Shown: in pieces, positions 13,193 to 29,778 of the stretch | How positions within the stretch are numbered: the stretch's first letter is position 1 | Layout: each line of letters opens with the position of its first letter | Notes under the pieces: generated by a model | Seen by the model: only the letters and a program-made list of their open reading frames with translations | Told to the model about the DNA's origin: nothing | Database searches by the model: none | Position numbers and translations under genes: made by a program | Source of the DNA: Candidatus Limnocylindrales bacterium | GTDB lineage: Bacteria > Chloroflexota > Limnocylindria > Limnocylindrales > CSP1-4 | Direction: 5' to 3' | Assembly: GCA_035692745.1 (NCBI GenBank) | Contig: DASSHR010000322.1 | Coordinates: 1 to 46,794 of the forward strand | DNA: 46,794 nt

Positions 13193-13298
13193 GTCTTCCA
13201 AACCGCCCGTGCTAGGCTCGACCATTCGCCGGCCGGTGTCAAGATGCGACGCCAAGGCTGCCGCGACGGTCGATGATCTGGCCTCTGGAGGAACGGCG

Positions 13299-14006
13299 AT
13301 GGGAACCCTCGACGGCCGTGTCGCGCTGATCACCGGCGCGAGTCGCGGGATCGGCAGCGCGATCGCGCGAACCCTCGTCGAGGAGGGTGCCCGCGTCGCC
13401 CTCGCATCACGCAGCGGCGACGATCTCGGGATCCCGGAAGCCTTCGCGCGCGCCTGCGATGTCCGCGATGCCACGGCGCTCGAAACGATGGCCCGCGACG
13501 CCGCCGAGCACTTCGGCGGGATCGACATCCTCGTGGTGAACGCGGGGGTGGGCGCCTACGGCCCGTTCCTCGAGCTCGACGCCGCCCACCTCGAGGAGAT
13601 GATCGACGTCAATGTGAAGGGCGCGATCTACGCGGCGCGCGCGGCGCTCCCCTACCTGCTCCGCAGTGAGGCGGCCGATTTCGTGATGATCGCCAGCGAG
13701 GCCGGTCGTCGCGGCCTCCCGTTCGAGGCGGTCTACTGCGCCTCGAAATTCGCCCAGGTCGGGTTGACCGCGGCGCTCGATCACGAGCTGCGCGAGCACG
13801 GGGTCCGGTGCACGAACATCTGTCCCGGCGGCGTGGCGACGGACTTCGCGATGGGCCGCGGTCGCACGCCGGACATGCCGGCGCTGGCCGGGATGATGGC
13901 GCCCCAGGACGTCGCCGAGGCCGTGCGCTTCGTGGTCACGCGCCCGCGAACGCACCGGATCCTGGAGGTCGCCTTCCGGCCCGTCACCGAGTCCTCGTGG
14001 GGCTGA
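13299..14006 (+). CDS. Short-chain dehydrogenase/reductase (SDR)
   Basis: ATG 13299 is preceded by GGAGGA. Motifs: TGASRGIGSAIA (TGxxxGxG), VVNAGVG, YCASK (YxxxK). Confidence 0.9.
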   Translation: MGTLDGRVALITGASRGIGSAIARTLVEEGARVALASRSGDDLGIPEAFARACDVRDATALETMARDAAEHFGGIDILVVNAGVGAYGPFLELDAAHLEEMIDVNVKGAIYAARAALPYLLRSEAADFVMIASEAGRRGLPFEAVYCASKFAQVGLTAALDHELREHGVRCTNICPGGVATDFAMGRGRTPDMPALAGMMAPQDVAEAVRFVVTRPRTHRILEVAFRPVTESSWG

Positions 14007-14008
14007 CC

Positions 14009-15085: not shown

Positions 15086-15099
15086 GCCGCCAGCGGGGC

Positions 15100-16470
15100 G
15101 TGGTCGCGCGCCTCGCCCCGATCGAGCTGCCGGATTTCGGCGTCGCCGAGGTGCGGCCGGCGCTCCCGCCCGGGATCCACGCCGCCCGCCTGGAGCGGCT
15201 GCGGGCTGCCGCTGCCGAGCGGCGTCTCGACGTGCTGGTCCTGCCTGCGGATCGGGAGCACAGCGCGAACGTCAGCTGGCTGTCCGGCTTCGACCCGCGC
15301 TTCGAGGAGGCGATCGTGGTCGTGCGGCCGACCGGCCAGCCGACGATCCTCGTCGGCAATGAGTGCTGGGGCATCGCGGGTGACGCGCCGCTGCCGATGG
15401 ACCGGGTGCTCCACCAGGACCTGAGCCTGCCGAGCCAGCCGCGGGACCGGTCGCGGCCGCTCGCCGACGTGCTGCGCGACGCAGGCGTCGGGCCGGGCGC
15501 GCGCATCGGCGTCGTCGGCTGGAAGACGTACGCGGACCCGGCGTGGCTGGACGTGCCGGCCTACCTCGCGGATGTCGTTCGCGAGCTCGTCGGCGCTTCC
15601 GGGCACGTGGAGAACGCGGCCGGCCTCCTGATCGATGCCGGGACCGGCCTGCGCGTCGTCAACGAGGTCGACCAGCTGGCCGCCTTCGAGGCCGCGTCGA
15701 CGCGGACGTCCAGCGGCGTCCGCAACCTGCTGCGCAACCTCCGCCCCGGCCTTCGCGAGCGCGACGCGGTGGCCCTCCTCGGCTGGGACGGCTCGCCCCT
15801 GTCGTGCCACCTCATGCTCACCGCGGGGCCGCGCGCGCGGTTCGGCCTGTACAGCCCGGGCGACCGCCCGATGGACGCAGGCGACCCGTTCACCGCCGCG
15901 TTCGGCGTGTGGGGCGCGCTGAACTGCCGAGCCGGCTGGCTCGTCGACGATGCCGCCGCACTCCCGGAGGGCATCCGCGACTACGTCGATCGCCTCGTGG
16001 CGCCCTATTTCGCGGCCATCGCCGCGTGGTACGAGGCACTCCGCATCGGGCAGACCGGGGGCGCGCTCGACGCGATCATCGCCGAGCGGCTCGGCGATCC
16101 GTTCTTCGGGATCTTCCTGAATCCCGGCCACCAGATCTCGCTCGACGAGTGGGTGAACTCGCCGATCGGGCCGGGATCCACCACGGAGCTGCGGTCCGGC
16201 ATGTACCTCCAGGTCGACGTCATCCCGGCGACCGGAACGCCGTACTTCACGACGAACATCGAGGACGGGGTCGCACTCGCCGACGCATCGCTGCGGCGCG
16301 AGCTCGAGGCGCGCCACCCCGAGGCGTGGCAGCGCATCCAGCGACGGCGCGCGTTCATGGCCGACCAGCTCGGCATCGGGCTGCACCCGGACGTGCTGCC
16401 GTTCTCGAACATGCCCGCCTGGCTGCCGCCGTTCCTGCTCGACACCGGGCGGGCGATGTCGCTCGCCTGA
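15100..16470 (+). CDS. Creatinase/prolidase-fold (M24-like) protein
   Basis: Real part of ORF 14068..16470. The start is GTG 15100, or alternatively TTG 15082, which overlaps the upstream TGA as TTGA. N-terminal creatinase-like block LDVLVLPADREHSANVSWLSGFDPRFEEAIVVV; pita-bread-like C-terminal half (LNPGHQISLDEW, MYLQVDVIP, NIEDGVAL). Confidence 0.7.
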   Translation: MVARLAPIELPDFGVAEVRPALPPGIHAARLERLRAAAAERRLDVLVLPADREHSANVSWLSGFDPRFEEAIVVVRPTGQPTILVGNECWGIAGDAPLPMDRVLHQDLSLPSQPRDRSRPLADVLRDAGVGPGARIGVVGWKTYADPAWLDVPAYLADVVRELVGASGHVENAAGLLIDAGTGLRVVNEVDQLAAFEAASTRTSSGVRNLLRNLRPGLRERDAVALLGWDGSPLSCHLMLTAGPRARFGLYSPGDRPMDAGDPFTAAFGVWGALNCRAGWLVDDAAALPEGIRDYVDRLVAPYFAAIAAWYEALRIGQTGGALDAIIAERLGDPFFGIFLNPGHQISLDEWVNSPIGPGSTTELRSGMYLQVDVIPATGTPYFTTNIEDGVALADASLRRELEARHPEAWQRIQRRRAFMADQLGIGLHPDVLPFSNMPAWLPPFLLDTGRAMSLA

Positions 16471-16481
16471 GGCGCGATCCG

Positions 16482-18176
16482 ATGACCGCATCGACGCCGT
16501 CACGGAGGCCCCGCGCGCTGCTCCTCGGCCTCGGCGTGATCGTGGCCGTGGTTGCGATCGGGGGCGCCGCGACCGCGCTCGGGCTCGCGCCATGGTCGCC
16601 GGCAGCCACCGACGGCGTCCCGATCCCCCACTTCATCGATGAGACGGCCTCCTCCGGCGTCGACTTCACGTCGGGCGGCGACGTGACGTACTCGGTCGGC
16701 GGTGGGGTCGCCGTGTTCGACTGCAACGACGACGGCCGTGAGGACCTGTACCTCGCCGGCGGCACGGATCCCGCGGCCCTGTTCCGGAACGACAGCCCGA
16801 CCGGCGGTGCCCTGGCGTTCACGCGGCTGGCCGATCCGGCCACCGACCTCGACGCCGTGAACGGGGCCTACCCCATCGACGTCGACGGCGACCGCCGCAT
16901 CGACCTCGTCGTGCTCCGCAACGGCGAGAACGTCGTGCTCCGCGGCCTCGGTGACTGTCGGTTCGAGCGGGCCAACGAGCGCTGGGGGCTGGACGGCGGC
17001 GACGAGCTCACCGAGGCGTTCAGCGCGACGTGGGAGCCCGGCGCCACCTGGCCGATGGTCGCGTTCGGCAACTACGTGGACCCGACGCAGGACGATCCGT
17101 CGCGCTGGTGCGAGCCGAACCAGCTCGTTCGGCCGGCGGCGGGAGCAACGCCCGGGTTCGGAGATGGGCAGCCGCTCGACCCGAGCTGGTGCGCGCTGTC
17201 GATGCTGTTCAGCGACTGGGACGGGTCCGGCCGGATGGACCTGCGCATCAGCAACGACCAGCACTACTACCCCCCGGAGCTCGGCGAGGAGCAGCTCTGG
17301 CGCATCGAGCCCGGAGCCACCCCGCGGCTGTACACCCCCGACGATGGCTGGCGGCTCGTCCGGATCCAGGGCATGGGCATCGCCAGCCAGGACCTGACGG
17401 GCGACGGGCTGCCGGAGATCTACCTCACGAGCCAGGCGGCGAGCCGGCTCCAGACGCTGGCGTTGGGACCGTCGAAGCCGACATACATGGACATCGGATC
17501 CGCCCGCAACGTCAACGTGGCGCAGCCGTTCGCGGGCGGCGAGCACCTGCCGTCAACGGCCTGGCATCCCGAGTTCGAGGACGTGAACAACGACGGGCGG
17601 CTCGATCTCTTCGTGTCCAAGGGCAACGTGACGACCCAGCCGGACTACGCCCAGAAGGATCCGAGCAACCTCCTCCTCGGCCTACCCGACGGCACCTTCC
17701 GGGAGGTCGCGGACGTCGCCGGGATCCTGTCCTTCGACCGCGGGCGTGGCGCCGCCCTGGCCGATTTCAACCTCGACGGCTGGCTCGATCTCGTCGAGGT
17801 GAGCTACGGCGCGCCGGTCCGACTCTGGCGGGGCACCGGCACGGACGCGGCGCGCGGTGGCGGGCACCCGGGCCATTGGCTCGCGCTCCGCGTGCGCGAG
17901 GGCGGCCCGAACGTCGATGCCATCGGCGGCACGCTGGAGGTCCGGTTCGGCGACCAGGTGGTGCGGCACGAGCTCACGATCGGTGGCGGGCACGCCGGCG
18001 GCCAGCTCGGCTGGGTCCACGTCGGGCTCGGCGCCGCGACGAGCGCGGAGGCCCGCGTCCATTGGCCGGACGGGACCGACGGCCCGTGGCAGGCGCTCGG
18101 CGTGGATGGCTTCGCCGTGCTGGATCGTGATGCGCCCGGGCCGATTGCCTGGCAGCCCGGAGCTCCCCTGCCCTAG
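16482..18176 (+). CDS. CRTAC1-family protein: FG-GAP/VCBS repeats + ASPIC/UnbV C-terminal module, N-terminal signal anchor
   Basis: Real part of ORF 15543..18176 from ATG 16482 (MTASTPSRRPRALLLGLGVIVAVVAIGG...). Repeats: FDCNDDGREDLYLAG, IDVDGDRRIDLVVL, SDWDGSGRMDLRISN, QDLTGDGLPEIYLTS, EDVNNDGRLDLFVSKG, ADFNLDGWLDLVEVS. These are followed by GGTLEVRFGDQVVRHELTIGGGHAGGQ. Confidence 0.8.
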   Translation: MTASTPSRRPRALLLGLGVIVAVVAIGGAATALGLAPWSPAATDGVPIPHFIDETASSGVDFTSGGDVTYSVGGGVAVFDCNDDGREDLYLAGGTDPAALFRNDSPTGGALAFTRLADPATDLDAVNGAYPIDVDGDRRIDLVVLRNGENVVLRGLGDCRFERANERWGLDGGDELTEAFSATWEPGATWPMVAFGNYVDPTQDDPSRWCEPNQLVRPAAGATPGFGDGQPLDPSWCALSMLFSDWDGSGRMDLRISNDQHYYPPELGEEQLWRIEPGATPRLYTPDDGWRLVRIQGMGIASQDLTGDGLPEIYLTSQAASRLQTLALGPSKPTYMDIGSARNVNVAQPFAGGEHLPSTAWHPEFEDVNNDGRLDLFVSKGNVTTQPDYAQKDPSNLLLGLPDGTFREVADVAGILSFDRGRGAALADFNLDGWLDLVEVSYGAPVRLWRGTGTDAARGGGHPGHWLALRVREGGPNVDAIGGTLEVRFGDQVVRHELTIGGGHAGGQLGWVHVGLGAATSAEARVHWPDGTDGPWQALGVDGFAVLDRDAPGPIAWQPGAPLP

Positions 18177-19765
18177 GTCGTGCTCGGCGGGAGCACCGCG
18201 ACCAGCAGCCAGCGCTCGCCCGTCGCCCGCCGGACCGCGAACACCTCGTCGAACGGCGCCTCGGTCGTGGAAACCACCACCCCGGCGGCATCCCGGGTCT
18301 GGTCGGTCCGCGTGCCGGTCATGCGGAAGCCGAGGCTGAAGCCGTCCTGCTTCCCGAACGGGACGAGCAGCGAGACCGTCCCGGCGTCGAAGTCGTAGGT
18401 GGTGAGCACGGTCTGCCCGCTGGCATGGGCGTCGAGCAGTCGCTGCGTCATCTCGGCCAGGCGATCGCCGTGGTCGGCGACCGCGAGCAGCGAGCGATCG
18501 TCGTGCAGGAGCGCCTCGTTCTCGATCGCCAGGTTCTGCGCCAGGGTGATGAGGATGGCGTTGATGCCCGGGCCGGCGAACGACGGATCGAAATCGGTCA
18601 CGTCCTGGCCGACGGTGACCGGTGGCAGGGTCGATGGGTCGACCTGGCCGGGCAGCCGGTTCAGCACCTCCGCCGACACCGGCAGGGTCACGCCCCGGGC
18701 CGGCGTGCCGGCGACCACGATGCCGGTGCCCAGGATCGCCAGCGCCACGACGGCGGCCACGCCCGCGACACCGCGCCGCCCGGCGCTGGCGGCGGGATCG
18801 CCGCCGGTCGCGAGGCGGTCGGCGAAGGCTCGGAGCCGGTCGGCGGCCGATTTCGGCTCCGGCAGGACGCGCTCGAGGAGCGGTCGGGTCGCGCAGACCA
18901 CGACGAGACCGGAGAGCAGCCCGACCTTCGCCCCGAACTCGGTCGTCTGCGGCGCGATCAGGATCGTGCTGACCACCGCGACGAGGAAGCCGAACACGAC
19001 CCGTCCGACCCGGCCGCCGGGCACGGTCTTGGGATCCGTGATCATGAAGAACAGGAAGATCAGGATCTCCGGCGACGTCACGATCGAGCGCCAGAAGTCG
19101 ACGCCGCACACGGGTGCGAACGACCAGCGCGTGACCATGCAGTGCCCGGACGCGGCGAGCAGCCCGAGGCCCACCGCGAGGGTCCCCCAGAACGTCGCGG
19201 CGAGGATCAGCAGGTGCAGCCGCCGCGTGATCAGCACGCCGCCGACGAGGATTACCCCGTAGGCGAGGAGCATCGCCGGGTTGGTGATCGGCGCCCACCA
19301 GAAATCGAGCGGCTCCACTCGTGTCGAGCCAAGGATCACGAAGGTCAGCACGAGGCCCAGGTTGGCCGGGTTGAAGACGTGGGAGCCGCGGTAGCGGATG
19401 ACGTACTTCGAGAGGAGCGAGAGGCCGGCCACGCCGGCGAAGAGCCACCAGGCGTACGTGGTCCAGTGGTCCCCGGGCGCCGTCCCGACGACGCGCATGA
19501 TCAGGGCCACGGCGCTGCCGGTGAGCATCGCGCTCGCGGGCCACACGAAGGACTTCGTCTGCCAGAAGGTGATGCCCACCTCCAGCAGCCAGCAGATGCC
19601 GATCGCGGCGACGATCTGCGGCACGCTGACCCAGAAGCCCAGGCCCACCTGGCCGAGCAGGTGCACCGTGAGGACGACGATCGCGACGTGCAATCGCGGA
19701 TCGCGCACGTTCGGAAGGACGAGCGGATAGCTCCCCTGCCCGATGGTGACGGTCCGCGCGGTCAT
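18173..19765 (-). CDS. RnfD/NqrB-like polytopic membrane protein with extra TM helix and ~190-aa C-terminal extracytoplasmic-looking domain
   Basis: 530-aa clean ORF. Blocks SHVFNPANLGLV and FFMITDPKTVP resemble the FNPA and MxTDP blocks of the NQR2/RnfD/RnfE family. After about residue 330 there is the TM helix GVAGVAAVVALAILGTGIVVAG and then a soluble domain. A TATGAT -10-like hexamer (plus 19774-19779) lies 8 nt before the ATG. Confidence 0.65.
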   Translation of the reverse strand: MTARTVTIGQGSYPLVLPNVRDPRLHVAIVVLTVHLLGQVGLGFWVSVPQIVAAIGICWLLEVGITFWQTKSFVWPASAMLTGSAVALIMRVVGTAPGDHWTTYAWWLFAGVAGLSLLSKYVIRYRGSHVFNPANLGLVLTFVILGSTRVEPLDFWWAPITNPAMLLAYGVILVGGVLITRRLHLLILAATFWGTLAVGLGLLAASGHCMVTRWSFAPVCGVDFWRSIVTSPEILIFLFFMITDPKTVPGGRVGRVVFGFLVAVVSTILIAPQTTEFGAKVGLLSGLVVVCATRPLLERVLPEPKSAADRLRAFADRLATGGDPAASAGRRGVAGVAAVVALAILGTGIVVAGTPARGVTLPVSAEVLNRLPGQVDPSTLPPVTVGQDVTDFDPSFAGPGINAILITLAQNLAIENEALLHDDRSLLAVADHGDRLAEMTQRLLDAHASGQTVLTTYDFDAGTVSLLVPFGKQDGFSLGFRMTGTRTDQTRDAAGVVVSTTEAPFDEVFAVRRATGERWLLVAVLPPSTT

Positions 19766-19784
19766 GGTCGGGCATCATAGGTGC

Positions 19785-20417
19785 ATGGCACGTGACGAAG
19801 AACGAGTCGAGCGGGCTGGGCAGGCGCCGATCGTGGGCGGCCTCCCGGAGGTGCCCGGCATCGGGGTGGCGATGCGCCTGACGCCCGGTCTGGGCGTGCA
19901 TCTCCGGGGCCTCGCCGACGAGGTGCTGGTCCACGACTTCCCCGGGGCGACGCTCCGCCGCGACCAGCGCGAGCTGCTCGCGACCGCGGTCTCGGCCGCG
20001 AACGACTGCTTCTTCTGCATGGATTCCCACGGCGCCTTCGTGGCCGCGCTCCTGGAGAAATCCGGCGCGCAGGAGCTCCTGCCGTTGATCGACGTCGCGA
20101 AGGCCGGCTCGTCCGAGGGCTTCGACGCGAAGATGCAGGCGCTGCTGCACATCGCCCGCACCGTCCGCCGCGACGCGCTGGCGCTGACGGAGGCCGACGT
20201 CGCGGCGGCCCACCACGCCGGGGCCACGGAGGCGGACGTCCAGCTCGCGGTGCTCATCGCCTCGGCGTTCTCGATGTACAACCGGCTGGTCGACGGCTTC
20301 CGGGCCCGCACCGCGCCCACGCCGGACGCCTATCGCGAGCGGGCGGCCGAGATCGCCGACAACGGCTACAGCGCGCCGTCGGCGCTGCCTGCGGCGCCCG
20401 GACCGCCTCGACCCTAG
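19785..20417 (+). CDS. Carboxymuconolactone decarboxylase / AhpD-like peroxidase-related protein
   Basis: ORF 19743..20417 trimmed to ATG 19785. It has the CxxCxxxH redox motif NDCFFCMDSH typical of AhpD/CMD-family proteins. Confidence 0.75.
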   Translation: MARDEERVERAGQAPIVGGLPEVPGIGVAMRLTPGLGVHLRGLADEVLVHDFPGATLRRDQRELLATAVSAANDCFFCMDSHGAFVAALLEKSGAQELLPLIDVAKAGSSEGFDAKMQALLHIARTVRRDALALTEADVAAAHHAGATEADVQLAVLIASAFSMYNRLVDGFRARTAPTPDAYRERAAEIADNGYSAPSALPAAPGPPRP

Positions 20418-20481
20418 GAAGCCCGCGCCGGGGCGGCGCGCTCTCAGGCAGTTCGAAGAATTGGGCGCCAACCTGCGGGTC

Positions 20482-20850
20482 ATGAACGAATCCGCCCGAG
20501 CCACCACCGCGCGAGAGCGTGACCGCGCCCTTCGTCGACTCCGTTCGATCACCACGGGCACGGCCGTCGTCGCGACGATGGCAACGGCCGGGTTCGGCAC
20601 GCTCGCCGCGTTCACGTGGTCGGGCGCGTCCACCGACGCGACCGCCGAGCAGGACGACACGGGCACGGTCACGACCGACACCACGATCACCACCGGCGTC
20701 GTCGGCGGCGACGAGGACGCCGACATGCTGCCCGACGCCGAGGCACCAGCGACCGCGGCGCCACAGACCGCGGCGCCACTCCAGCCGACGCCCACGCCGA
20801 TCGCGACCACGAAGCACAAGAGCCGCGTCACGAGCGGAGGCTCCGGGTGA
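20482..20850 (+). CDS. Small single-pass membrane protein with low-complexity Thr/Asp and Pro/Ala tail (no recognisable domain)
   Basis: ATG 20482 (MNESARATTARERD...), TM helix ITTGTAVVATMATAGFGTLAAF, C-terminus ...KHKSRVTSGGSG. Its TGA overlaps the GTG of apbE (GTGA 20847-20850), which argues that it is translated. Confidence 0.5.
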   Translation: MNESARATTARERDRALRRLRSITTGTAVVATMATAGFGTLAAFTWSGASTDATAEQDDTGTVTTDTTITTGVVGGDEDADMLPDAEAPATAAPQTAAPLQPTPTPIATTKHKSRVTSGGSG

Positions 20851-21791
20851 TCCGCTGGCGCGCGCTGGGCACGCATGTCGACCTGCTCGTCCATCGCGGC
20901 GACGCCCGCGTTGCACGCGCCGCGGTCGAGGCCGTCCTGGCGGACGTCGACCGGACATACAGCCGCTTTCGACCGGACAGCGAGCTCGTCGCACTCAACG
21001 CACGAGCCGGCACGACCGTTGAGCTGAGCCCGCTGCTCGCCCGCGCGATCGGGGTCGCAATCCGAGCCGCACGCCAGACCGACGGCCTGTGCGATCCCAC
21101 GATCGGGCGTGCGCTGCTGCGCATCGGCTACGACGCCGACTTCGCCGCGATCGCGGCGAGCAGCGCACCGATCGAGCTGCGCATGGAGCGCGTCGCCGGC
21201 TGGCGGTCCCTCCGGTTCGACGAGGCGGCGCGGACGTTGCGGGCGCCGGCCGGCGTGGCGATCGACCTCGGCTCGACCGGCAAGGCGCTTGCGGCCGATC
21301 TCGCGGCGGAGGCCGCCGTCGCGGCGATGGGTCGGGGCGGGGTGCTCGTCAGCCTGGGTGGCGACCTCGCCGTCGCCGGCGACGTGCCCGCGGACGGCTG
21401 GCCGGTCCTCGCCGCCGATGATTCGACGGCGCCAGCACGCCGCGGTGGCGAGGTCATCGCGATCCGGGACGGGGCCATCGCCACGTCGAGCACGACCGTT
21501 CGAACCTGGCGCCGCGCCTCGGTCGTCGTCCATCACCTCATCGATCCGCGCACCGGAATCCCGGCGCGCAGCCCGTGGCGGACCGTTTCGGTTGCCGCGG
21601 CCACCTGCGTCGATGCGAACGCCGCGGCCACGGCCGGGCTCATCCGGGGCACGGACGCGCCGGGCTGGCTCGAGGGCCTCGGCTTGGCGGCCCGACTCGT
21701 CACGCTCGAGGGCGAGATCGTGCGCGTCGGCGGCTGGCCGATGCCGGCATCCGCCGCGCCCGCGCCGACCTCCGCAGGACGTGCCGCGTGA
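20847..21791 (+). CDS. apbE: FAD:protein FMN transferase (ApbE family), no signal peptide visible
   Basis: Real part of ORF 20616..21791 from GTG 20847 (VIRWRALGTHVDLLV...). Blocks: RFRPDSELVALN, DPTIG, DLGSTGKALAADL, SLGGDLAV, TSSTTVRTW, HHLIDPRTG. Confidence 0.85.
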   Translation: MIRWRALGTHVDLLVHRGDARVARAAVEAVLADVDRTYSRFRPDSELVALNARAGTTVELSPLLARAIGVAIRAARQTDGLCDPTIGRALLRIGYDADFAAIAASSAPIELRMERVAGWRSLRFDEAARTLRAPAGVAIDLGSTGKALAADLAAEAAVAAMGRGGVLVSLGGDLAVAGDVPADGWPVLAADDSTAPARRGGEVIAIRDGAIATSSTTVRTWRRASVVVHHLIDPRTGIPARSPWRTVSVAAATCVDANAAATAGLIRGTDAPGWLEGLGLAARLVTLEGEIVRVGGWPMPASAAPAPTSAGRAA

Positions 21792-22372
21792 GCACCCAGC
21801 TGCTGTGGTTCGCGACGCGCGGCTCGGGCATCGTGTCGATGCTCCTGTTCAGCTTCGTCGTGGTCCTCGGCATCCTGACCACGATGCGCTGGCAGGCCTC
21901 CGGCTGGCCGCGCTTCCTCACCGCCGAGCTGCACCGGACCATCTCGCTGCTCTCGGTCGCGTTCATCGTCGCCCACATCGTCACGTCGATCCTCGACCCG
22001 TTCGCGAAGCTCGGCATCGAGGCGGCAATCATTCCCTTCGCGTCGTCGTACCGGCCGCTGTGGGTCGGGCTCGGGGTCCTGTCGATGGACATCGGGATCG
22101 CGCTGCTCGTGACCTCCCTGCTCAAGGCGCGGGTCGGCCAGCGCGCCTGGCGCGCCGTGCACTGGCTCGCCTATGCCGCGTGGCCGCTCGCGATCCTGCA
22201 CACGATCGGCTCCGGCAGCGACGGCGGGGCGAGCTGGATGTTCGCCATCGACGTCGTGTGCATCGGGTCGGTGTGCCTCGCGTTGATCTGGCGGATCCTC
22301 GCCGCGCGCGGCCCGAACACCGCCCTCCTCGAAGCGGTCGCGGATGGCGCTCGCGGGGCGGGCCGGCCATGA
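21788..22372 (+). CDS. Ferric-reductase-like transmembrane (dihaem b) domain protein
   Basis: GTG 21788 overlaps the apbE stop (GTGA). It has six predicted TM segments. The bis-His pairs H-x13-H (ELHRTISLLSVAFIVAH) and H-x12-H (AVHWLAYAAWPLAILH) match FRD/NOX/MsrQ-type domains. Confidence 0.8.
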   Translation: MSTQLLWFATRGSGIVSMLLFSFVVVLGILTTMRWQASGWPRFLTAELHRTISLLSVAFIVAHIVTSILDPFAKLGIEAAIIPFASSYRPLWVGLGVLSMDIGIALLVTSLLKARVGQRAWRAVHWLAYAAWPLAILHTIGSGSDGGASWMFAIDVVCIGSVCLALIWRILAARGPNTALLEAVADGARGAGRP

Positions 22373-22385
22373 GCGGCGGCCACCC

Positions 22386-23663
22386 GTGAGCGCCGTCCGT
22401 GTCCTGGCGGGGCCGCCGCTCGAGCGGGGCGCCGAGTCGTACCTCGAGCACGTCGCGCGGCTCGGCCCGCTGCCGCTGTCGCAGGCGCAACGCACGTTGA
22501 TCCCCGAGCTCGAGGCGAGCGGCCTGCTCGGCCGCGGTGGCGCGGGCTTTCCGGTCGGTCGGAAGTGGCGGTCGGTCGCGGAGCGAGCGCACGGACGGGG
22601 CGCGGTCGTGCTCGTCAATGGGGCCGAAGGCGAGCCGCTGTCCCACAAGGACCGCACGATCCTTGCCCTGCGCCCGAACCTCGTCCTCGATGGCGCGCAG
22701 CTTGCGGCCGAGGCCATCGGCGCGAACGAGATCGTGCTGTACGTCGGCGAGACCGCCGAGGCGGCCACCGATGCCCTCCAGCGCGCCGGCGCGGAACGTC
22801 GGGCGGCGGGCGCGGGCTCGAGGGTGCCGATTCGCATCGCCCGTGCGCCCGACCGCTACGTGGCCGGCGAGGAATCGGCCGCGGTCCGCTTCGTCAACGA
22901 GGGTGACGCACGACCCGTGACCACGCCGCCCCGGCCGTTCGAGCGCGGCGTCGCCGGCCTGCCCACCCTCGTGCAGAACGTCGAGAGCCTCGCGCACGCT
23001 GCCCTCATCGCGCGCAGCGGCGCGGACTGGTATCGCGCCGTCGGCGAGGGCGACGCGCGCGGCACGGCGCTCGTCACGGTCACGGCGCCGGGCGGCAGGC
23101 CGGTGGTTCGTGAGGTCGAGCTGGGTCGCACCATTGGGGAGGTCGCGCGGCTCGACGCGGCACGTCCCGGCGACGGCACGTCGGCGGCGACCGCCTCGGA
23201 TACCCAGGCGGTGCTGCTCGGCGGCTACTTCGGGCGCTGGATCGATGCCGGCACGGCGTGGGGCCTGCCGCTCAACCCGGACATCCTGCGACAGCACGGC
23301 CTGTCGATGGGCGCCGGCGTCGTCGCATTCCTGTCGACGTCGACGTGCCCGATCGTGGCGACCGCCCGCATCGCCGAGTACCTGGCGGCGCAGAGTGCGG
23401 CGCAATGCGGCCCGTGCGTGTTCGGGCTGCGGGCGATCGCGGACGCGGTGACCCGCCTCGCACGGCTCGAGGCACACCGGGAGGACTGGGCGAACGTCGA
23501 GCGCTGGGCCGCCCAGGTGAAGAACCGCGGCGCGTGCCGGCATCCGGACGGGGCGGTGGGTTTGCTCGAAAGCGCGCTCGTGACGTTCGAGGGCGAGCTG
23601 GAGCGGCACTGGCATCGGCGCGGCTGCTCCTTCTCGGCCGGCGTCCGCAGCCGGGCTGCGTGA
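22386..23663 (+). CDS. NuoF-like NAD(P)H-oxidising flavo-iron-sulfur protein (stand-alone)
   Basis: ORF 22344..23663; start GTG 22386 (alt ATG 22344 would overlap the FRD gene). Blocks: GRGGAGFPVGRKW, NGAEGEPLSHKDR. Cys ligands: QCGPCVFG and GACRHPDG. Confidence 0.8.
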   Translation: MSAVRVLAGPPLERGAESYLEHVARLGPLPLSQAQRTLIPELEASGLLGRGGAGFPVGRKWRSVAERAHGRGAVVLVNGAEGEPLSHKDRTILALRPNLVLDGAQLAAEAIGANEIVLYVGETAEAATDALQRAGAERRAAGAGSRVPIRIARAPDRYVAGEESAAVRFVNEGDARPVTTPPRPFERGVAGLPTLVQNVESLAHAALIARSGADWYRAVGEGDARGTALVTVTAPGGRPVVREVELGRTIGEVARLDAARPGDGTSAATASDTQAVLLGGYFGRWIDAGTAWGLPLNPDILRQHGLSMGAGVVAFLSTSTCPIVATARIAEYLAAQSAAQCGPCVFGLRAIADAVTRLARLEAHREDWANVERWAAQVKNRGACRHPDGAVGLLESALVTFEGELERHWHRRGCSFSAGVRSRAA

Positions 23664-23920
23664 TGGCGACGTCGACGAAGACGCAGATGCCGCCGGCGCA
23701 CGGCAGGCCGCTGGCGCAGGGCGAGACCCGCCTCGAGGTGGATCGCATCCTGTGCGACGGCTATGGCATGTGCGCGGAGCTGCTGCCCGAGCTCATCGAC
23801 CTCGACGACTGGGGCTACCCGATCGTCCACTCGCACGTGCCACGGCAGCTCGAACGGGTTGCCCGCCGGGCGGTCGACGTGTGCCCCGTGCTCGCCCTCC
23901 GGTTGCGATCCGGCCGCTGA
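23663..23920 (+). CDS. Single-cluster ferredoxin (C-x5-C...CP type)
   Basis: ATG 23663 overlaps the preceding TGA (TGATG). Sequence: ILCDGYGMCAELLPELIDLDDWGYP...VDVCPVLAL. Confidence 0.8.
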   Translation: MATSTKTQMPPAHGRPLAQGETRLEVDRILCDGYGMCAELLPELIDLDDWGYPIVHSHVPRQLERVARRAVDVCPVLALRLRSGR

Positions 23921-23972
23921 TCGGCGGCCACCCGCATGGCGCGATCCGCCGGTCCTTGGCAGGATTCAACCC

Positions 23973-25370
23973 ATGACGACGACGAATTCCACGCTCCAGG
24001 ACCAGCTGCGAACGCTTCGATCCACGATCGCCGGCCGTGTCATCGAGCCCGCTGACGTCGAGTACGACCAGGCCCGCCAGGTGATGCTGGGCGGCATCGA
24101 CCGCCATCCCGCGGCGATCGTGCGCGTCGCCGACGTCGACGACGTCCGGGCGGTGATCGCCCTCGCCCGCGAGACAGGCGCCGAGCTGGCGGTGCGCAGC
24201 GGCGGCCACAGCGCCAAGGGCGACAGCACGACCGAGGGTGGCATCGTGCTCGACCTGCACGACCTGCGGGCGATCGACATCGATGCCGAGGCCCGCACCG
24301 GCTGGTTCGAGACCGGCCTGAGCGCCGCCGACGTGTCGCAGGCAGCGGCCGCCCACGGGCTCGCGATCGGGTTCGGGGATACCGGCTCGGTCGGGATCGG
24401 CGGGATCACCACCGGTGGCGGCATCGGCTACCTCGTCCGCAAGTTCGGGATGACCATCGACAACGTCCTCGCCGCGGACGTCGTCACCGCCGACGGCCAG
24501 CTCCTGCGTGCCGATGCATCGACGAATCCGGACCTGTTCTGGGCGATCCGCGGCGGTGGTGGCAACTTCGGCGTGGTGGTCCGGTTCCAGTACCGGCTCG
24601 CCGAGCTGCCCGGGATCGTGGGCGGCATGCTCTTCCTGCCGGCCACCGCGGAGACCGTCGAACGGTTCGTCGCTCTCGCCGGCGAGGCGCCCGAGGAGCT
24701 GTCGACGATCGCGAACGTCATGCCCTGCCCGCCGATGCCGATGGTGGACCCGGCCTGGCACGGCAAGCTCGTGATCTTCGGGCTCCTGTGCTATGCGGGA
24801 CCGGCCGATGCCGGCAACGCAGCGCTGCAGCCGTTCCGCGACCTGGCGAAGCTCGGTGGCCTGGACGCCCCGATCGCCGACCTCGTGCGTCCGATGACCT
24901 ACCCGGAGATGTTCCCGCCCGAACAGGGTGACTACCACCCGCTCGCGGTCAGTCTCAACCTGTTCCTCGACCGGTTCGACACGGCGACTGCCGAGCAGGT
25001 GATGGCGCACCTCGAGGCCTCCGACGCGGAGATGCGAGCGGCGCAGATCCGGGTGCTCGGCGGGGCGATGGCGCGGGTGCCCGTGGATGCCACGGCCTTC
25101 GCCCACCGCCGGAGCCCGATCATGGTCCAGGTCGCGGTGTTCTACGCGGACGACGCTGATCGCGTCCGGCGGCTCGCGTGGGCGCAGGACTTCGTCGATG
25201 CGATCCGCCAGGACGACGATGGCGCGTACGTGGGGTTCGTCGGCGACGAGGGCGAGGAACGGGTCCACGCTGCCTATCCCGGCGCGACCTACCAGCACCT
25301 CGCCGAGGTCAAGCGCCGCTACGACCCGACCAACCTCTTCCGGCTGAACCAGAACATCCCGGCCGCCTGA
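23973..25370 (+). CDS. FAD-linked oxidase (FAD_binding_4 + BBE-like C-terminus)
   Basis: ORF 23763..25370 trimmed to ATG 23973 (MTTTNSTLQDQL...). Blocks: AELAVRSGGHS, GIGGITTGGGIGYL, DLFWAIRGGGGNFGVV, YDPTNLFRLNQNI. Confidence 0.85.
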   Translation: MTTTNSTLQDQLRTLRSTIAGRVIEPADVEYDQARQVMLGGIDRHPAAIVRVADVDDVRAVIALARETGAELAVRSGGHSAKGDSTTEGGIVLDLHDLRAIDIDAEARTGWFETGLSAADVSQAAAAHGLAIGFGDTGSVGIGGITTGGGIGYLVRKFGMTIDNVLAADVVTADGQLLRADASTNPDLFWAIRGGGGNFGVVVRFQYRLAELPGIVGGMLFLPATAETVERFVALAGEAPEELSTIANVMPCPPMPMVDPAWHGKLVIFGLLCYAGPADAGNAALQPFRDLAKLGGLDAPIADLVRPMTYPEMFPPEQGDYHPLAVSLNLFLDRFDTATAEQVMAHLEASDAEMRAAQIRVLGGAMARVPVDATAFAHRRSPIMVQVAVFYADDADRVRRLAWAQDFVDAIRQDDDGAYVGFVGDEGEERVHAAYPGATYQHLAEVKRRYDPTNLFRLNQNIPAA

Positions 25371-25381
25371 GGTCGCCCGCG

Positions 25382-25425
25382 CGACGCCGGCTCGACGCCG
25401 GCTCGACGCCGGCTCGACGCCGGCG
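25382..25425. repeat. Intergenic 11-bp x4 tandem repeat
   Basis: cgacgccggct x3 followed by cgacgccggcg. It lies between the FAD oxidase stop (25370) and the GlsB-family start. The unit length is not a multiple of 3. Confidence 0.85.
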
Positions 25426-25462
25426 CGGCGCCGCCGCCCGCATGGCGGCCGGGCGCGGCACA

Positions 25463-25741
25463 ATGCCCGGCATGCCCGGCTACGACCTCCTCGGCTGGAT
25501 CGTCATCGGCCTGCTCGCAGGCTCGATCTCGGGCTGGTTCGTGCGCGGCACCCACAGCGTGCAGGGCTGCCTGCCGACCATCGTCGTCGGGATCCTCGGC
25601 GCGATCGTGGGCGGCTGGATCGTGCGCAGCATCGGCAACGACCCGGCGCAGGGCTTCTTTGGGGCCTTGGTGTTCGCGATCATCGGCTCGGTGGTCGTGC
25701 GAATCGTGCTCCGGGCGATCGAGGGCGGCGGGCGCCGCTGA
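25463..25741 (+). CDS. GlsB/YeaQ/YmgE-family small membrane protein
   Basis: Tail of ORF 25178..25741; start ATG 25463 or 25472. Sequence: LLGWIVIGLLAGSISGWFV...VGILGAIVGGWIV...GALVFAIIGSVVV. Confidence 0.8.
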   Translation: MPGMPGYDLLGWIVIGLLAGSISGWFVRGTHSVQGCLPTIVVGILGAIVGGWIVRSIGNDPAQGFFGALVFAIIGSVVVRIVLRAIEGGGRR

Positions 25742-26476
25742 TCAGCGCCAGTCGATCGTGACGACCTCCACCGGCTCGGAGAACCCCTTCAGGACCTCCC
25801 GCCGCGGCGCGGAGGTCGGATAGGCGTCACCCGCCGTCGCGACGCTCGCGACGATCTCGTTGCCGCCGGCGATCGACGCGATCCGCGACGCCTCGTGGAC
25901 GCCGCGGCCCCGGAAGTTCTCGCCGACCTGGTTCGCGTCGGCGGCGTGGATCCCGATCCGGATGGGCGGCGCGAAGCCCGCCTTCTGGCGATGCTCTGCC
26001 AGCCGGCGCTGGATGGCGACCGCGGCCGCAACCGCCTGCTCCGGCGAGTCGAAGCCGACGAAGAACCCGTCGCCCGTCGTCGAGATCTCCTTGCCCTGGT
26101 GCGCGCTGAACACCTCGCGCAGGGTCGCGTCGTGCCAGCGGAGAAGCGTGTCCCACGCCTCGTCGCCCATGACCTCGACGAGGTTCGTGGAGCCAACGAC
26201 GTCGGTGAACATGAACGTCTTGAGCACGCGCCGCTTCGGCTCGGCCCTGCCCCGCAGCTGCCACGGCAGGAGCTCGGTGACCTGCTCGATCACGATCGCG
26301 GCCGTTGGGCAGGCGAAGGCCGCCTCCTGCAGCAGGTCGTCCTCGACGGTGTCCGTGCCGATCACGTCGGCCTTGCCGAAGTCGCCCTTCAGCCAGTCGA
26401 ACGCCGTGGGGGCCAGCGTGATGCAGTTGCCCGCGCCGATGCACTTGTGCCGATCGACGCGGACGACGAGCGGCAT
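25742..26476 (-). CDS. Ferredoxin-domain / class III nucleotidyl (adenylate/guanylate) cyclase fusion protein
   Basis: Real part of ORF 25742..27403 from ATG 26476 (MPLVVRVDRHKCIGAGNCITLAP...AFACPTAAIVIE). The cyclase core follows: FMFTDVVGSTNL, TTGDGFFVGF, IRIGIHAADA, RGRGVHEASRI. Confidence 0.8.
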   Translation of the reverse strand: MPLVVRVDRHKCIGAGNCITLAPTAFDWLKGDFGKADVIGTDTVEDDLLQEAAFACPTAAIVIEQVTELLPWQLRGRAEPKRRVLKTFMFTDVVGSTNLVEVMGDEAWDTLLRWHDATLREVFSAHQGKEISTTGDGFFVGFDSPEQAVAAAVAIQRRLAEHRQKAGFAPPIRIGIHAADANQVGENFRGRGVHEASRIASIAGGNEIVASVATAGDAYPTSAPRREVLKGFSEPVEVVTIDWR

Positions 26477-26486
26477 CAGGCGCGCC

Positions 26487-29400
26487 TCATGCCGGCGCCA
26501 GGCCCTGCCCGCCACCGACGGGCAGCGACGCACCGAGGCCGCGCATTGCCAGCGTCGTGGCGTGCGCGCGATCGGTCGCGCCCATCGTGACCATGAGGTC
26601 GGCGAGCCGGCCGGAGACGGTCGCCTCGTCGACGCCGAGCCGAGCGGCCATCTCGCGGTTGGTGAGGCCCTCGGTGAGGAGGAACACCAGTGCGCGGTCG
26701 TCATCGGACAGGCCGCTGGTCGGGCCGCCGGAGCGGTCGCCCGTCCCTGCCGCCGGCGGCTCGCCGGCCAGGGCCACGAAGCGGGAGCCGATCGGGCCGC
26801 GCAGCCAGCGCACGCGGACGGACTCGTCGAGGATGCCCTGCACGCTGCGCGCGAGGATGATCTGGAGGTAGCCGCGAACGAATTCCTGCGCCTCGGGCGG
26901 CCCTGCTTCGAGCAGGATCCGGCCGGCGGGGAGCACGACATCCGGGTAGACATCCTCGTGCTGGCCGGCCTCGAGTGCCTGGACCGCGGCAAACGCCGCC
27001 GCGACCGCACCGTCGACGTCGCCACGCGCCAGGTGGACCGTCGCGAGCGCGGCGTCGCACTCCGAGCCCCACGCGGGCTGCCCGGGCAGCTGGGCGAGGA
27101 GGGCCTTCGCGGCGCCGGCGGACCGCTCCGCCAGGCCGAGGAGCTCGTCGTCCTGGCGCTCCGCTCCGAGCCGGGCCGCCTCGACGGCAAGCCGGGTGAG
27201 CGCCTCGCATCGGGCCGCGGGCCGGCCCTGGCCCTCGGCGAGCTCGACGGCGCGCTCGAGCTGGGCTCGCGTGCCCGGCACGTCGCCCGCGGCCGCGCGT
27301 GCGCGGCCGCGCAGGAGCGCGAGCTGCCGCGTGCGCGCGGGCGTCGGGAGCGCGCTCGCGACCTCCGCCGCGGCGTCGATCCAGCGCTCCGCGGCATCGA
27401 CATCGCCGAGCTGCAGCTCCGCCAGCGCGACGCCCTTGGCGGCGCTGAACTGCACGTCCTGCCGGCCGAGCAGCCGTGCCGCTCGATACGCCTCCTCGCC
27501 GCGCGAGGTCGCGGCGTCGGGCAGCTGCTTGCCGAGGCCGTACACCTGGATGCCGTACAGCAGATGCAGCTCCTGCGCGGCGCGCTCGCTCTCCGTGACG
27601 AGCACGGCCTGTCGGGCGATGACGCGCTTGATCTCCTCGAGATGGCGGACCGAGTTCGACAGGTGGATCAGCGGCGCGTACCGCAGGTAGGCCATCGCGA
27701 TCACCGTCGACATCACCCCCGACCGGTCGTCGAGCCGTTCGAAGATGGCGAGCGCCCGCTCCAGGAGCGCCCCGCCCTCGGCAACGAGCTTGCCGAGGGG
27801 CAGGTCCCCGACCACGGCCTCCAGCGTCTCGCCCGCCTGCAGCCGGCGGGTGACCCCCATCCACTCGCCCGTCCGGACGAGGTCGTTGACGAACGTGGTC
27901 CGGAGGCGCGAGACGACGAGCGAGCCGACCTCGCGCAGGGATGCCGCGAGCGCCCGCTCGTCGCCGAGCTGCTCGGCCAGCTCCGCCGCACGCCGGAAGG
28001 CCGCCTCGGCGCCGTCCGCATCCACCTCGACCGTCGACACGCCGAACGAGTCTCCGAGCTCCGTCCGGGACAGCGCCTGGCCGAGCTCGAGGGTCGCCCG
28101 GAGCTCCGTCGCCGGATCGCCGAGCTCTGCGGCGCGCGCGATCACGCGGCGCGCCAGCTCCGCGGCCGCGTCTTCGTCGTGGGCCGCCCGGAGCGCCGCC
28201 GCCCGCCGGAGCTGCACGTCCAGCTCCAGGGCCGGCTCGCGGAGCGCCTCGGCGAGCGCGCCGAGCTCCGCGAGGCCCTCGATGCGGTCGGAGGTGCGCC
28301 GCAGCGCGGCGTACGCATCGTCGCGGGTGGCGAGCAGGACGCGCCGCTCCGCCGGCGACGTGACGACCGGCAGCGCCGCGTCGACCAGGCGCAGCGCCTC
28401 CTCGGGCGCGTTCGAGCGGAGCGCGGCCGCGGCCGCGTCGATGGAGAACCGTGCCGCGCGCGTGTTGTCGCCGGCGGCGAGCGCGTGCTGGGCGAGCATC
28501 GGCAGGCCCTCGGCGGGCGGCTCGCCCGCCTCGAGGAGCAGGTCGACCACGCGGCCGTGAACCTCGCGCCGGCGGGCGTTCGCCAGCTGGGCATTCGCGA
28601 AGTCCCGGACCTGCTCGTGGGAGAACGTGTAGTCCGCGGCATCGCCTTGCGGATGCGCCAGGAGCAGGCCGGCCTCGACGGCCGGAGCGAGCGCCGCGGC
28701 AATCCCGTCGGGCGTGCGGTCGGCGCCACCGATCGCCACGAGATCGCGCACGCTGAAGCTCCGTCCGAGCACGGCCGCCTCGCCGAGCAGTGCGAGCGCG
28801 GGAGCCGGCAGGCGCGCGGCCCGTCGCGAGATCAGCGTCCGGACGGCAGAGGGCACGAGCCGGGCCGCGTTCCGGCCGAGCCGCCACTCCCCGCCGACCT
28901 GCTGCAGCGTGCCGGCCTCGCGATGCGCCTGGGCGAGCTCCTCGACGATGAACGGCACGCCTTCCGACTGGGCGTGCATCGCGGCGATGCTCTGGCCGTC
29001 CACCGGCCCACCGAGCACCTGCCGGAGCAGCAGGCCGGTCTCCGTGGCGCCGAACCGGCTGACCCGGAGGCGCCGCACGAGGCCCATCCGCTCCATGTCG
29101 GCGAGGAAGTTCGTCGCTTCCGTGTTTTTCGCGAGCTCGTCCGTTCGGAAGGTCAGGAACAGGAACACGGGCCGGTCGCCGACGCTGCGGACGGCGTAGC
29201 GCAGCAGTCGCAGCGTGTCGTCATCGGCCCACTGGACGTCATCGAGCAGCAGGGCGATGGGCTTGACCGCGGCCAGCTCCTGGATCGCGATGCCCGCGAG
29301 GTCGAACGTGCGGAGGAGCTTCGCCTCGGGCGACAGGTGCTCGAAGCCGGGCTCGTCGCGACCGGCCAGTGCGTCGGCCACGCGCCGGACCGGGACCTCC

Positions 29401-29768: not shown

Positions 29769-29778
29769 CGCCGACAGT

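Follow-up and report, generated by a model that had tools for sequence, protein, structure and literature searches.

The gene cluster described here lies on contig DASSHR010000322.1 (assembly GCA_035692745.1) of a Candidatus Limnocylindrales bacterium, from which a stretch of 46,794 nucleotides with a G+C content of about 72% was analysed; this entire stretch is referred to below as the window. At positions 20482-23920 of its plus strand, five chained open reading frames (ORFs) encode a small tail protein (ORF1), an ApbE-family FAD:protein FMN transferase (FAD, flavin adenine dinucleotide; FMN, flavin mononucleotide), a ferric-reductase-type dihaem membrane protein (FRD), a NuoF-like flavoprotein, and a ferredoxin. 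We read this operon, with a probability of roughly 0.55, as an electron-export module that is complete in itself and belongs to the 'MsrQ-like, flavinylation-associated' type; in it, electrons from NAD(P)H would cross the membrane on two haems and reach a flavin attached to ORF1. This reading draws on gene content, on the conservation of the cluster, on invariant cofactor ligands, on a C-terminal motif conserved in ORF1, and on the predicted membrane topology.

An earlier note on this DNA, made from the letters and the translated ORFs, had taken the five ORFs for one expression unit because they are joined by start/stop overlaps and one short gap. All four junctions, read directly from the sequence, are as it described them (Table 1), and the peptide motifs that it quoted are all present where it had placed them. 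Four of the five products match Pfam families above the curated thresholds (ApbE, Ferric_reduct, Complex1_51K together with NADH_4Fe-4S, and Fer4_15). A public metagenome contig with identical DNA carries independent gene calls that agree for the four genes downstream of ORF1, while the start codons of ORF1 (ATG) and of the NuoF-like gene (GTG) are backed by the alignment of homologues. A GGAGG sequence is found 6 nt 5' of the apbE start.

Uncultured soil bacteria share the layout, which is conserved in Limnocylindria-like Chloroflexota, in Dormibacterota, and in some Actinomycetota. We judged 67 related loci to have enough flanking DNA for a count by tblastn and by searches for ORF ends. The ferredoxin gene directly follows the NuoF-like gene in 66 of these loci, the FRD gene directly precedes it in 46, an apbE gene is found at a distance of at most 7 kb in 44, and both FRD and ApbE are present in 41. 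The overlaps recur as well, since -4 or -1 overlaps are the commonest junctions in the related loci: 25 of 43 between apbE and FRD, 35 of 55 between FRD and NuoF-like, 36 of 74 between NuoF-like and ferredoxin, and 21 of 32 between ORF1 and apbE, counts that are somewhat generous because the script takes the start codon nearest to the upstream stop. Hence, the five genes are a conserved, translationally coupled operon and not the product of chance adjacency. In the remaining 21 loci, the NuoF-like/ferredoxin pair stands alone behind unrelated upstream genes (for instance in the loci that we labelled L005, L013, L015, L021, L023, L031, and L044), which marks it as a portable two-gene module of the NAD(P)H:ferredoxin type.

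Metagenomes contain thousands of relatives of the NuoF-like protein. Among those in a species-level genome collection, the closest (up to 73% identity) come from metagenome-assembled genomes (MAGs) labelled Limnocylindrales, Chloroflexia, or Chloroflexota, more distant ones from Dormibacterota, and the most distant (42-50%) from Actinomycetota/Solirubrobacterales; none of the relatives in this collection stems from a cultured organism. Judged by these relatives, the host is most likely a Limnocylindria-like member of the Chloroflexota and does not belong to the Actinobacteria prevailing among published MsrQ-like clusters.

Table 1. Positions of the genes, junctions, and sequence elements discussed in the text (numbering of the window, except for the arrangement in the last row, which is numbered within its own locus).
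Feature	Position	Strand	Remarks
ORF1 (tail protein)	20482-20850	+	122 residues; no Pfam or NCBIfam match
ORF1 transmembrane helix	20548-20619	+	about residues 23-46, ITTGTAVVATMATAGFGTLAAFTW; ATAGFGxLAA core conserved in alignments
ORF1 C-terminal motif V-T-S-G-G-S-G	20827-20847	+	Ser121 is the candidate FMN-acceptor serine
ORF1/apbE junction	20847-20850	+	GTGA; start/stop overlap
apbE (FAD:protein FMN transferase)	20847-21791	+	314 residues; no signal peptide
apbE/FRD junction	21788-21791	+	GTGA; start/stop overlap
FRD (ferric-reductase/NOX/MsrQ-type dihaem membrane protein)	21788-22372	+	194 residues; five predicted transmembrane helices
FRD haem-ligand codons	H49 21932-21934; H63 21974-21976; H125 22160-22162; H138 22199-22201	+
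FRD/NuoF-like junction	22373-22385	+	13-nt gap, then GTG at 22386
NuoF-like flavoprotein	22386-23663	+	425 residues; FMN/NAD(P)H-binding domain and iron-sulfur domain
NuoF-like/ferredoxin junction	23661-23665	+	TGATG; start/stop overlap
Single-cluster ferredoxin	23663-23920	+	85 residues; C31-x5-C37 ... C74-P; Fer4_15 E 3.3e-12
OmpR/kinase/second tail/DinB_2 arrangement	L028 9516-12404		also L004, L007, L011, L012, L030, L037, L038, L051

ORF1, to which no function had previously been ascribed, belongs to a conserved protein family whose extreme C-terminus carries an ApbE-like motif. It consists of an Arg-rich N-terminus (RERDRALRRLRS), a single transmembrane (TM) helix, and an acidic, disordered tether rich in Thr, Ala, and Pro that ends in KSRVTSGGSG directly before the stop codon. 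Three annotated relatives of the cluster contain, 5' of apbE, a protein of 108-118 residues without a Pfam match that aligns with ORF1 at both ends, and a search of all loci for ORFs with the same ending recovered 53 homologues with one common plan; homologues lie directly 5' of the ApbE or the FRD gene. In these 53 proteins, the N-terminal segment follows the pattern RDRA(L/V)xR(L/I)xx(L/I)T; a single hydrophobic helix comes next, and then a stretch of 44-183 residues, hypervariable in sequence (Ser 19%, Thr 18%, Ala 15%, Gly 14%, Pro 8%), leads to the end [H/V]-[A/V]-[T/S/V]-[S/T]-G-G-S, followed by 0-2 residues. The G-G-S is present in 52 of the 53 sequences and is G-A-S in the remaining one; the Ala canonical for ApbE substrates appears in the ORF1 ends TSGAS (L071) and SGAS (L069). 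A profile search of 1.84 billion representative proteins extended the family to at least 221 clusters at 50% identity, with members of 59-244 residues, none of them fused to another domain. Among the database homologues, 139 of 165 end in [ST]G[GA]S plus 0-3 residues, the others being mostly fragments or TGSS variants.

This ending is rare, and it goes with the dihaem protein. Only 67 of the 10,311 ORFs of at least 60 residues in these loci possess it, most of them members of the ORF1 family, and ORF1 homologues occur in 40 of the 46 loci with FRD but in none of the 21 loci without it (Fisher p = 2e-12). Both Gly residues of the motif are encoded by all four synonymous codons and the Ser by three; the end has thus been kept through synonymous codon change, so that selection acts on the peptide. 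The motif also persists when the FRD gene is the next gene (L065, L069, L070, L076, L077), when ORF1 comes after apbE on the other strand (L063), and in second paralogues that follow a two-component system and have no overlapping 3' gene (L011, 11455-11817); its independence of the downstream gene implies that it does not merely reflect the constraint of a ribosome-binding site. Given this codon variety and the persistence without such an overlap, we rejected as its sole cause an artefact of a GGAGG Shine-Dalgarno sequence and of the overlap with apbE.

AlphaFold2 models ORF1 as a single helix (residues 10-46) with the remainder unstructured. On average, 6.2 Lys and Arg residues are found in the 20 residues before the helix of the family members and 0.7 after it, a bias present in 52 of the 53 sequences, and ORF1 is accordingly predicted to span the membrane with its N-terminus inside and its C-terminus outside. 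Directly after the TM helix, residues 46-50 of the window protein (FTWSGAS; 20617-20631) contain an S-G-A-S of which the relatives keep only [WY]-S-G; this is probably an interfacial aromatic/Gly feature and not a second flavinylation site.

ApbE recognises the sequence D-x-x-[S/T]-G-A-[S/T] and esterifies FMN to its last residue; seven residues are enough, tags at a terminus are modified best, the Asp can be lost with little effect, and Thr is preferred to Ser as the acceptor (PMC12052999). In the ORF1 end R-V-T-S-G-G-S-G, the [ST]-G-x-[ST] skeleton is retained and so is the acceptor Ser, but Gly stands where the Ala would be, and there is no Asp. We propose that ORF1 is an undescribed tethered peptide that receives a covalent flavin. 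The substrate gene had been reported as missing from the cluster, and for the FMN_bind domain this holds true: PF04205 has no match in the scanned cluster genes and neighbours, nor in the precomputed Pfam lists of three related loci (L082, L084, L085). It is ORF1, overlooked in that count, that now presents itself as the substrate candidate. Other [ST]GA[ST] strings in the window are a TGAS in the Rossmann fold of a short-chain dehydrogenase/reductase, the unconserved SGAS just behind the TM helix of ORF1, and those found in N-terminal extensions that were mis-called; none is a canonical motif in a plausible context, and the proteins in question were rejected as substrates.

The second gene of the operon encodes an ApbE fold. 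PF02424 matches with 163 bits (E 1.3e-47; cut-off 25.6) over model positions 1-256 of 266, the structures 1vrm, 4xdt, and 6nxi in the PDB are matched with E-values between 8e-25 and 1e-12, and the blocks DLGSTGKA, HHLIDP, and DANAAATA align with their counterparts in 1vrm and 4xdt. The protein thereby displays the blocks DLGG(I/S)xKG, (H)HH(I/L)IDP with its general-base His, and D-A-x-A-x-(S/T)-A; the hallmark DLGSTGKALAAD is found at residue 140, and the SG-Y-ER block is divergent (SSTTVRTW). What sets this ApbE apart from the usual extracytosolic enzyme, as which it had been introduced, is its N-terminus. The ORF starts six residues before position 1 of the Pfam model and hence essentially at the first residue of the fold, and inspection of the N-termini and of the upstream frame revealed no signal peptide, lipobox, or TM helix in the window ApbE or in about 45 cluster homologues, which have at most 15 residues, and no hydrophobic segment, before the fold start W(R/K)ALGT. 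A cytoplasmic location is consequently predicted, for which there is precedent in cytoplasmic ApbEs such as that serving the fumarate reductase of Klebsiella (PMC12052999). Two other ways of uniting this enzyme with an exported tail were rejected. A recoding fusion that would anchor ApbE to the membrane through ORF1 needs a -1 shift in the window and a stop readthrough in L084, whose ApbE shares the reading frame of ORF1, and no such fusion exists among the 221 family representatives, the longest of which has 244 residues. Export of the pre-flavinylated tail by the twin-arginine translocation pathway fails as a general mechanism, since a twin-Arg precedes the TM helix in only about half of the sequences.

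These features of ApbE and ORF1 are also those on which a different view of the tail protein can be built. Here, the haem wire would operate as we propose, but ORF1 would be structural only, its helix being the missing sixth helix of FRD and its tail an unflavinylated wall spacer or docking peptide; ApbE could then flavinylate an unlinked cytoplasmic protein, take part in flavin trafficking, or act as an FAD pyrophosphatase feeding FMN to the NuoF-like protein. The export signal missing from all ApbE homologues, the Klebsiella precedent of a cytoplasmic ApbE (PMC12052999), the five instead of six helices of FRD alongside the conserved TM sequence of ORF1, and the departure of the ORF1 motif from the D-x-x-[ST]-G-A-[ST] consensus would all suit this view. 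However, it has to contend with the translational coupling of ApbE to ORF1 in most loci and with the lack of any other window protein carrying a canonical motif in a plausible context. Moreover, conservation in this otherwise hypervariable tail is highest over its last seven residues, which mimic the ApbE motif, and a mere spacer would need no invariant G-G-S end. We therefore regard a purely structural role of ORF1 as unlikely.

The dihaem protein matches PF01794 over model positions 1-120 of 121 (34.2 bits; cut-off 28). Its two bis-His pairs, already recognised in the earlier note, are H49-x13-H63 in ELHRTISLLSVAFIVAH and H125-x12-H138 in AVHWLAYAAWPLAILH, and all four His residues are invariant in 60 homologues. 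An AlphaFold2 model (32 sequences; predicted local distance difference test score 78.5, predicted template modelling score 0.73) consists of five long helices, of which 46-69 and 118-142 carry the His pairs. The top Foldseek matches of this model are the bacterial NADPH oxidase SpNOX, the TM domain of cyanobacterial csNOX5, and STEAP1 with probabilities of 0.93-0.99, at weak E-values (0.1-0.4) and TM-scores of about 0.45-0.55, and with 172-188 columns aligned to NOX5 and STEAP1 at TM-scores of 0.5-0.55. The six-helix core of NOX, STEAP, and MsrQ is not complete in the model, as the first helix is missing; we speculate that the conserved ORF1 helix replaces it. The loop charges K113, R115, R119, and R122 place the 112-124 loop and the C-terminus inside. 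H49 and H125 would then constitute the inner haem site, and H63 and H138 the outer one.

The kinship with NADPH oxidases invites the question if the outer haem needs a flavin at all. The operon might instead encode a split bacterial NADPH-oxidase or MsrQ-type donor whose outer haem reduces O2 to superoxide or serves an unlinked enzyme of the periplasm or wall, for example an MsrP-like reductase, the flavin being inessential. SpNOX and NOX5 are the closest structures, the H-x13-H/H-x12-H spacing is that of NOX, the source databases call homologues 'sulfoxide reductase heme-binding subunit YedZ', and the OmpR-type two-component system linked to the cluster in many loci suggests a stress-responsive role. 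Nevertheless, neither the window nor the conserved core of the related loci contains MsrP or another reductase, and there would be no explanation why ApbE and ORF1 are so tightly linked with FRD, so that we consider this alternative to be quite improbable.

The 425-residue protein had been termed NuoF-like, and at the level of its domains this designation is apt. Complex1_51K (PF01512) is matched with an E-value of 2.8e-34 (118.6 bits) and NADH_4Fe-4S (PF10589) with 2.7e-16 (59.6 bits), about 375 residues align with NDUFV1/NuoF (E 3e-43) with retention of GRGGAGFPxGxKW and Y(I/V)xGEE(T/S)A, and the motifs GRGGAGFPVGRKW and NGAEGEPLSHKDR are found together with QCGPCVFG and GACRHPDG. Its score of 195 bits against the TIGR01959 NuoF equivalog falls so far below the cut-off of 558.65 that the protein is not a NuoF orthologue; it is a divergent paralogue, without a Pfam SLBB match and without an adjacent NuoE, and no nuo genes occur among the neighbours scanned (12147-30056) or are listed in the three annotated related loci. 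The cysteine segments previously singled out as cluster ligands are present as well, but the set is altered: where NDUFV1 has the N3 motif ESCGQCTPC, the window protein has QSAAQCGPC, so that Ala339 takes the place of its first Cys, with C341, C344, and C384 retained (A339-x-C341-x2-C344 ... C384). Ala339 is nearly invariant in the family, in which two extra cysteines, C321 and C414, are invariant too. This suggests an altered ligand set or cluster type, and C321 or C414 may supply the fourth ligand. The assignment of the last ORF as a C-x5-C...CP ferredoxin was confirmed by its Fer4_15 match.

Because modules of this kind work in both directions in other enzymes, we have also considered an inward flow, in which an extracellular or quinol-level donor would deliver electrons to the flavin and the haems and from there to the ferredoxin and NuoF-like protein for the reduction of NAD(P)+ or for ferredoxin-dependent enzymes. 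The reversibility of NuoF-type modules and ferredoxins is established for the diaphorases of hydrogenases and formate dehydrogenases, and such diaphorase modules are among the PDB matches of the NuoF-like protein. Yet, the transfer from b haems to NAD+ would be uphill without an energy-coupling subunit, none of which is encoded, and all FRD-domain proteins characterised to our knowledge carry electrons outward. An inward direction is thus highly improbable.

Collectively, these data lend themselves to the following model of outward electron transfer. In the cytoplasm, the NuoF-like protein would oxidise NAD(P)H on a non-covalently bound FMN and pass single electrons via its iron-sulfur cluster to the ferredoxin, which would reduce the inner b haem (H49/H125); the electrons would then cross the membrane to the outer haem (H63/H138). 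At the outer face they would be accepted by an FMN, joined by ApbE through an ester bond to the serine close to the C-terminal end of ORF1; this protein, single-pass and oriented N-in, C-out, would pack against the haem protein with its conserved TM helix. Its disordered tether of 45-180 residues would allow the flavin to shuttle to an extracellular or wall acceptor, be it Fe(III), another oxidant, or a partner encoded elsewhere. As the order NAD(P)H, NuoF-like protein, ferredoxin, dihaem protein, flavin had been proposed before, we note that it is right in outline and remains the most economical reading; its individual transfer steps, the flavinylation and where it takes place, the direction of flow, and the terminal acceptor are what we infer from the evidence given above. 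The conserved core of the cluster holds nothing that points to the terminal acceptor. Since ApbE has no export signal, the ORF1 tail would most likely be flavinylated before its translocation. We speculate that modification of the free C-terminus in the cytoplasm, followed by export of this last part of the protein to leave it, is the simplest way to reconcile the two locations. Passage of cargo-linked groups larger than FMN has been reported for SecYEG. Iron reduction as the physiological role of the module is a reasonable guess, made by analogy with the sensitivity of a Bifidobacterium breve apbE mutant to ferrous-iron chelation (PMC5449479) and with the VIT1 iron transporters to which part of the MsrQ-like clusters have been linked (Méheust et al., 2021; PMC8238504).

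Several observations weigh against this model. The NuoF-like/ferredoxin pair is not dedicated to the FRD protein, as the loci in which it stands alone demonstrate. The NuoF-like protein has only three of the four canonical N3 cysteines and hence misses one ligand. At the position of the Ala conserved in ApbE substrates, the ORF1 motif has Gly, a replacement that is not among the tolerances reported (PMC12052999); it also lacks the Asp and always offers the less favoured Ser. No flavin-binding fold surrounds the proposed FMN. In the window, the GGAGG within the SGG codons doubles as the Shine-Dalgarno sequence of apbE and could add to the conservation of the motif in that subset of loci. Finally, the predicted locations put the catalyst and the modification on opposite sides of the membrane unless flavinylation precedes export.

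A more far-reaching version of the model, which we advance only tentatively, sees in ORF1 a new class of ApbE substrate without a flavin-binding domain, flavinylated in the cytoplasm, threaded outward with its C-terminus, and contributing its TM helix in trans as the sixth helix of FRD. ORF1 would then be a 'flavin on a string', swinging from the outer haem of a NOX-like cytochrome with five helices to acceptors outside the cell and back, and in this operon the uncultured Chloroflexota, Dormibacterota, and Actinomycetota that abound in soil might possess a hitherto unrecognised device for extracellular electron transfer.

In many of the MAGs labelled 'Chloroflexia', the ferredoxin gene is followed on its 3' side by genes for an OmpR-type response regulator, a HisKA/HATPase kinase, a second tail paralogue ending in HA(S/T)(S/T)GGS, and a DinB_2 protein (Table 1). 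The presence of these genes in some loci points to a regulated, envelope-related use. A distant variant of the cluster (L033, 3089-9215; also L035) encodes two small TM/low-complexity proteins without a GGS end, a signal-less ApbE (33% identity), and an FRD of 271 residues that is extended at its N-terminus; next come a response regulator and a kinase, and only after them the NuoF-like/ferredoxin pair.

In the window itself, the cluster is flanked by genes of narrower distribution. Divergent from it, a polytopic membrane protein of 530 residues (18173-19765, minus strand) has a sub-threshold match to NQR2_RnfD_RnfE (PF03116, E 9.6e-4), FNPAN- and TDPKT-like strings, a C-terminal extension of about 230 residues, and no sequence match in the PDB. 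It is kept only in the closest relatives (L001, L082) and hence lies outside the core; for these reasons, its sub-threshold Pfam score and missing PDB match included, this RnfD/NqrB-like protein was rejected as the acceptor. Directly 5' of ORF1, a CMD/AhpD-like 'peroxidase-related' protein with a CFFC motif is encoded (19743-20417, plus strand), whose gene was found in L082 and not in more distant loci. Directly 3' of the ferredoxin gene follows a BBE/FAD_binding_4 oxidase gene (23973-25370, plus strand), a homologue of which adjoins or is near the cluster in L002, L082, and L084; this may be a loose association. Further downstream on the minus strand, a single-cluster ferredoxin domain is fused to a class III adenylate/guanylate cyclase domain (25742-26476), which could be a cyclase sensing redox state through its iron-sulfur cluster, and directly upstream of this gene on the same strand lies that of an AAA_16 and LuxR/GerE regulator of 1189 residues (26487-30056); the pair recurs in L082. 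As the earlier note had stated, neither a terminal reductase nor MsrP, an Nqr or Rnf set, or an EetAB/PplA (Ndh2) set is found among the cluster genes and the scanned neighbours. An Rfam scan of the whole window gave no match, and riboswitch control, for example by FMN, was therefore rejected; scans for promoters and terminators between 19600 and 25600, which are uninformative for this phylum, found nothing.

Limnocylindria-like Chloroflexota and Dormibacterota are known almost wholly from MAGs, which have so far taught us next to nothing about the redox biology of their envelopes. If our model is true, the known substrates of ApbE would include, besides folded domains, a bare C-terminal tag of natural origin, a cytoplasmic ApbE could flavinylate a protein destined for export, and a compact NAD(P)H-to-outside wire composed of a complex-I-type flavoprotein, a ferredoxin, and a NOX-type cytochrome would be added to the known ones. 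Specialists would be surprised to see a signal-less ApbE paired with a conserved, tethered [ST]GGS tail, and such a natural tag could serve flavin-tagging technology.

How does this operon relate to known systems? The earlier note had placed it outside the known layouts, a view that does not hold, because it falls into the 'MsrQ-like' class of flavinylation systems, of which 1797 clusters, mostly from Actinobacteria and typically with apbE and FMN_bind, have been described (Méheust et al., 2021; PMC8238504). In 31 of the MsrQ-like clusters, that publication notes a NuoF-like protein. The class is defined by a PF01794 gene at a distance of at most five genes from apbE, FMN_bind, DUF2271, or DUF3570 (DUF, domain of unknown function), and in our case the FRD gene overlaps the apbE stop codon. 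The NuoF subtype agrees with the operon reported here in the PF01794 dihaem protein adjoining apbE, in the PF10589 NuoF-like protein as the presumed entry point for NAD(P)H, and in the proposed direction from the cytosol to the outside. The differences are that, by inspection, the ApbE of our operon has no signal peptide, that the cluster has neither an FMN_bind gene nor one of the DUF genes, that a domain-less tail protein holds the position of the substrate, that a dedicated ferredoxin is present, and that the hosts are mainly Chloroflexota and Dormibacterota instead of Actinobacteria. Our full-text literature searches yielded no paper on a domain-less tail substrate or on this cluster in Chloroflexota or Dormibacterota. 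The class of the system is thus known from bioinformatics, whereas this variant, and ORF1 in particular, is not.

Its components likewise have well-studied counterparts. With SpNOX (8qq7), csNOX5 (5o0t), and STEAP, the FRD protein shares two bis-His b haems on two helices, the x13/x12 spacing, and, in our model, outward transfer from NAD(P)H; in NOX and STEAP, an FNR-type FAD/NADPH (or F420-type) domain is fused to a six-helix core, whereas here the core has five helices and the dehydrogenase is separate, consisting of the NuoF-like protein and the ferredoxin. MsrQ of the MsrPQ (YedYZ) system is also a small stand-alone FRD-domain haem protein, and many homologues are automatically annotated as YedZ. 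However, MsrQ is fed by quinol or Fre and has no linkage to ApbE, and the MsrP molybdoenzyme is absent from our cluster. NuoF/NDUFV1 and the diaphorases of hydrogenases and formate dehydrogenases resemble the NuoF-like protein in its two domains over about 375 residues (E 1e-43) and in the GRGGAGFP and GEE(S/T)A motifs; from NuoF it is set apart by its score below the equivalog cut-off, the lack of an adjacent NuoE-like 2Fe-2S partner and of a Pfam SLBB match, the Ala in place of the first N3 cysteine, and its two extra invariant cysteines.

As regards the flavinylated acceptor, the Ndh2/EetAB/FmnB/PplA system of Listeria offers a parallel in another monoderm host, in that an ApbE-type enzyme produces a membrane-tethered protein with covalent FMN for extracellular acceptors. 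The folded FMN_bind domains and the lipid anchor of PplA, the exported lipoprotein FmnB, and the supply of electrons from the quinone pool are features of that system which are missing here. Closer to ORF1 in their architecture are some Flavodoxin_4 and FMN_red substrates of ApbE, since the motifs of the FMN_red proteins are carried by unstructured C-terminal extensions that fold back on the flavin site (Huang et al., 2024; PMC11334425), and the 'Flavin-tag' (Tong et al., reviewed in PMC12052999), in which a bare tag of seven residues is modified. The FMN_red proteins, the Flavin-tag, and, by our proposal, ORF1 carry the motif on an unstructured terminal extension. The FMN_red tails fold onto a flavodoxin-like flavin site, whereas a folded domain is missing from ORF1; D-x-x-[ST]-G-A-[ST] is the sequence of the artificial Flavin-tag, whereas ORF1, the proposed natural tag, has [ST]-G-G-S.

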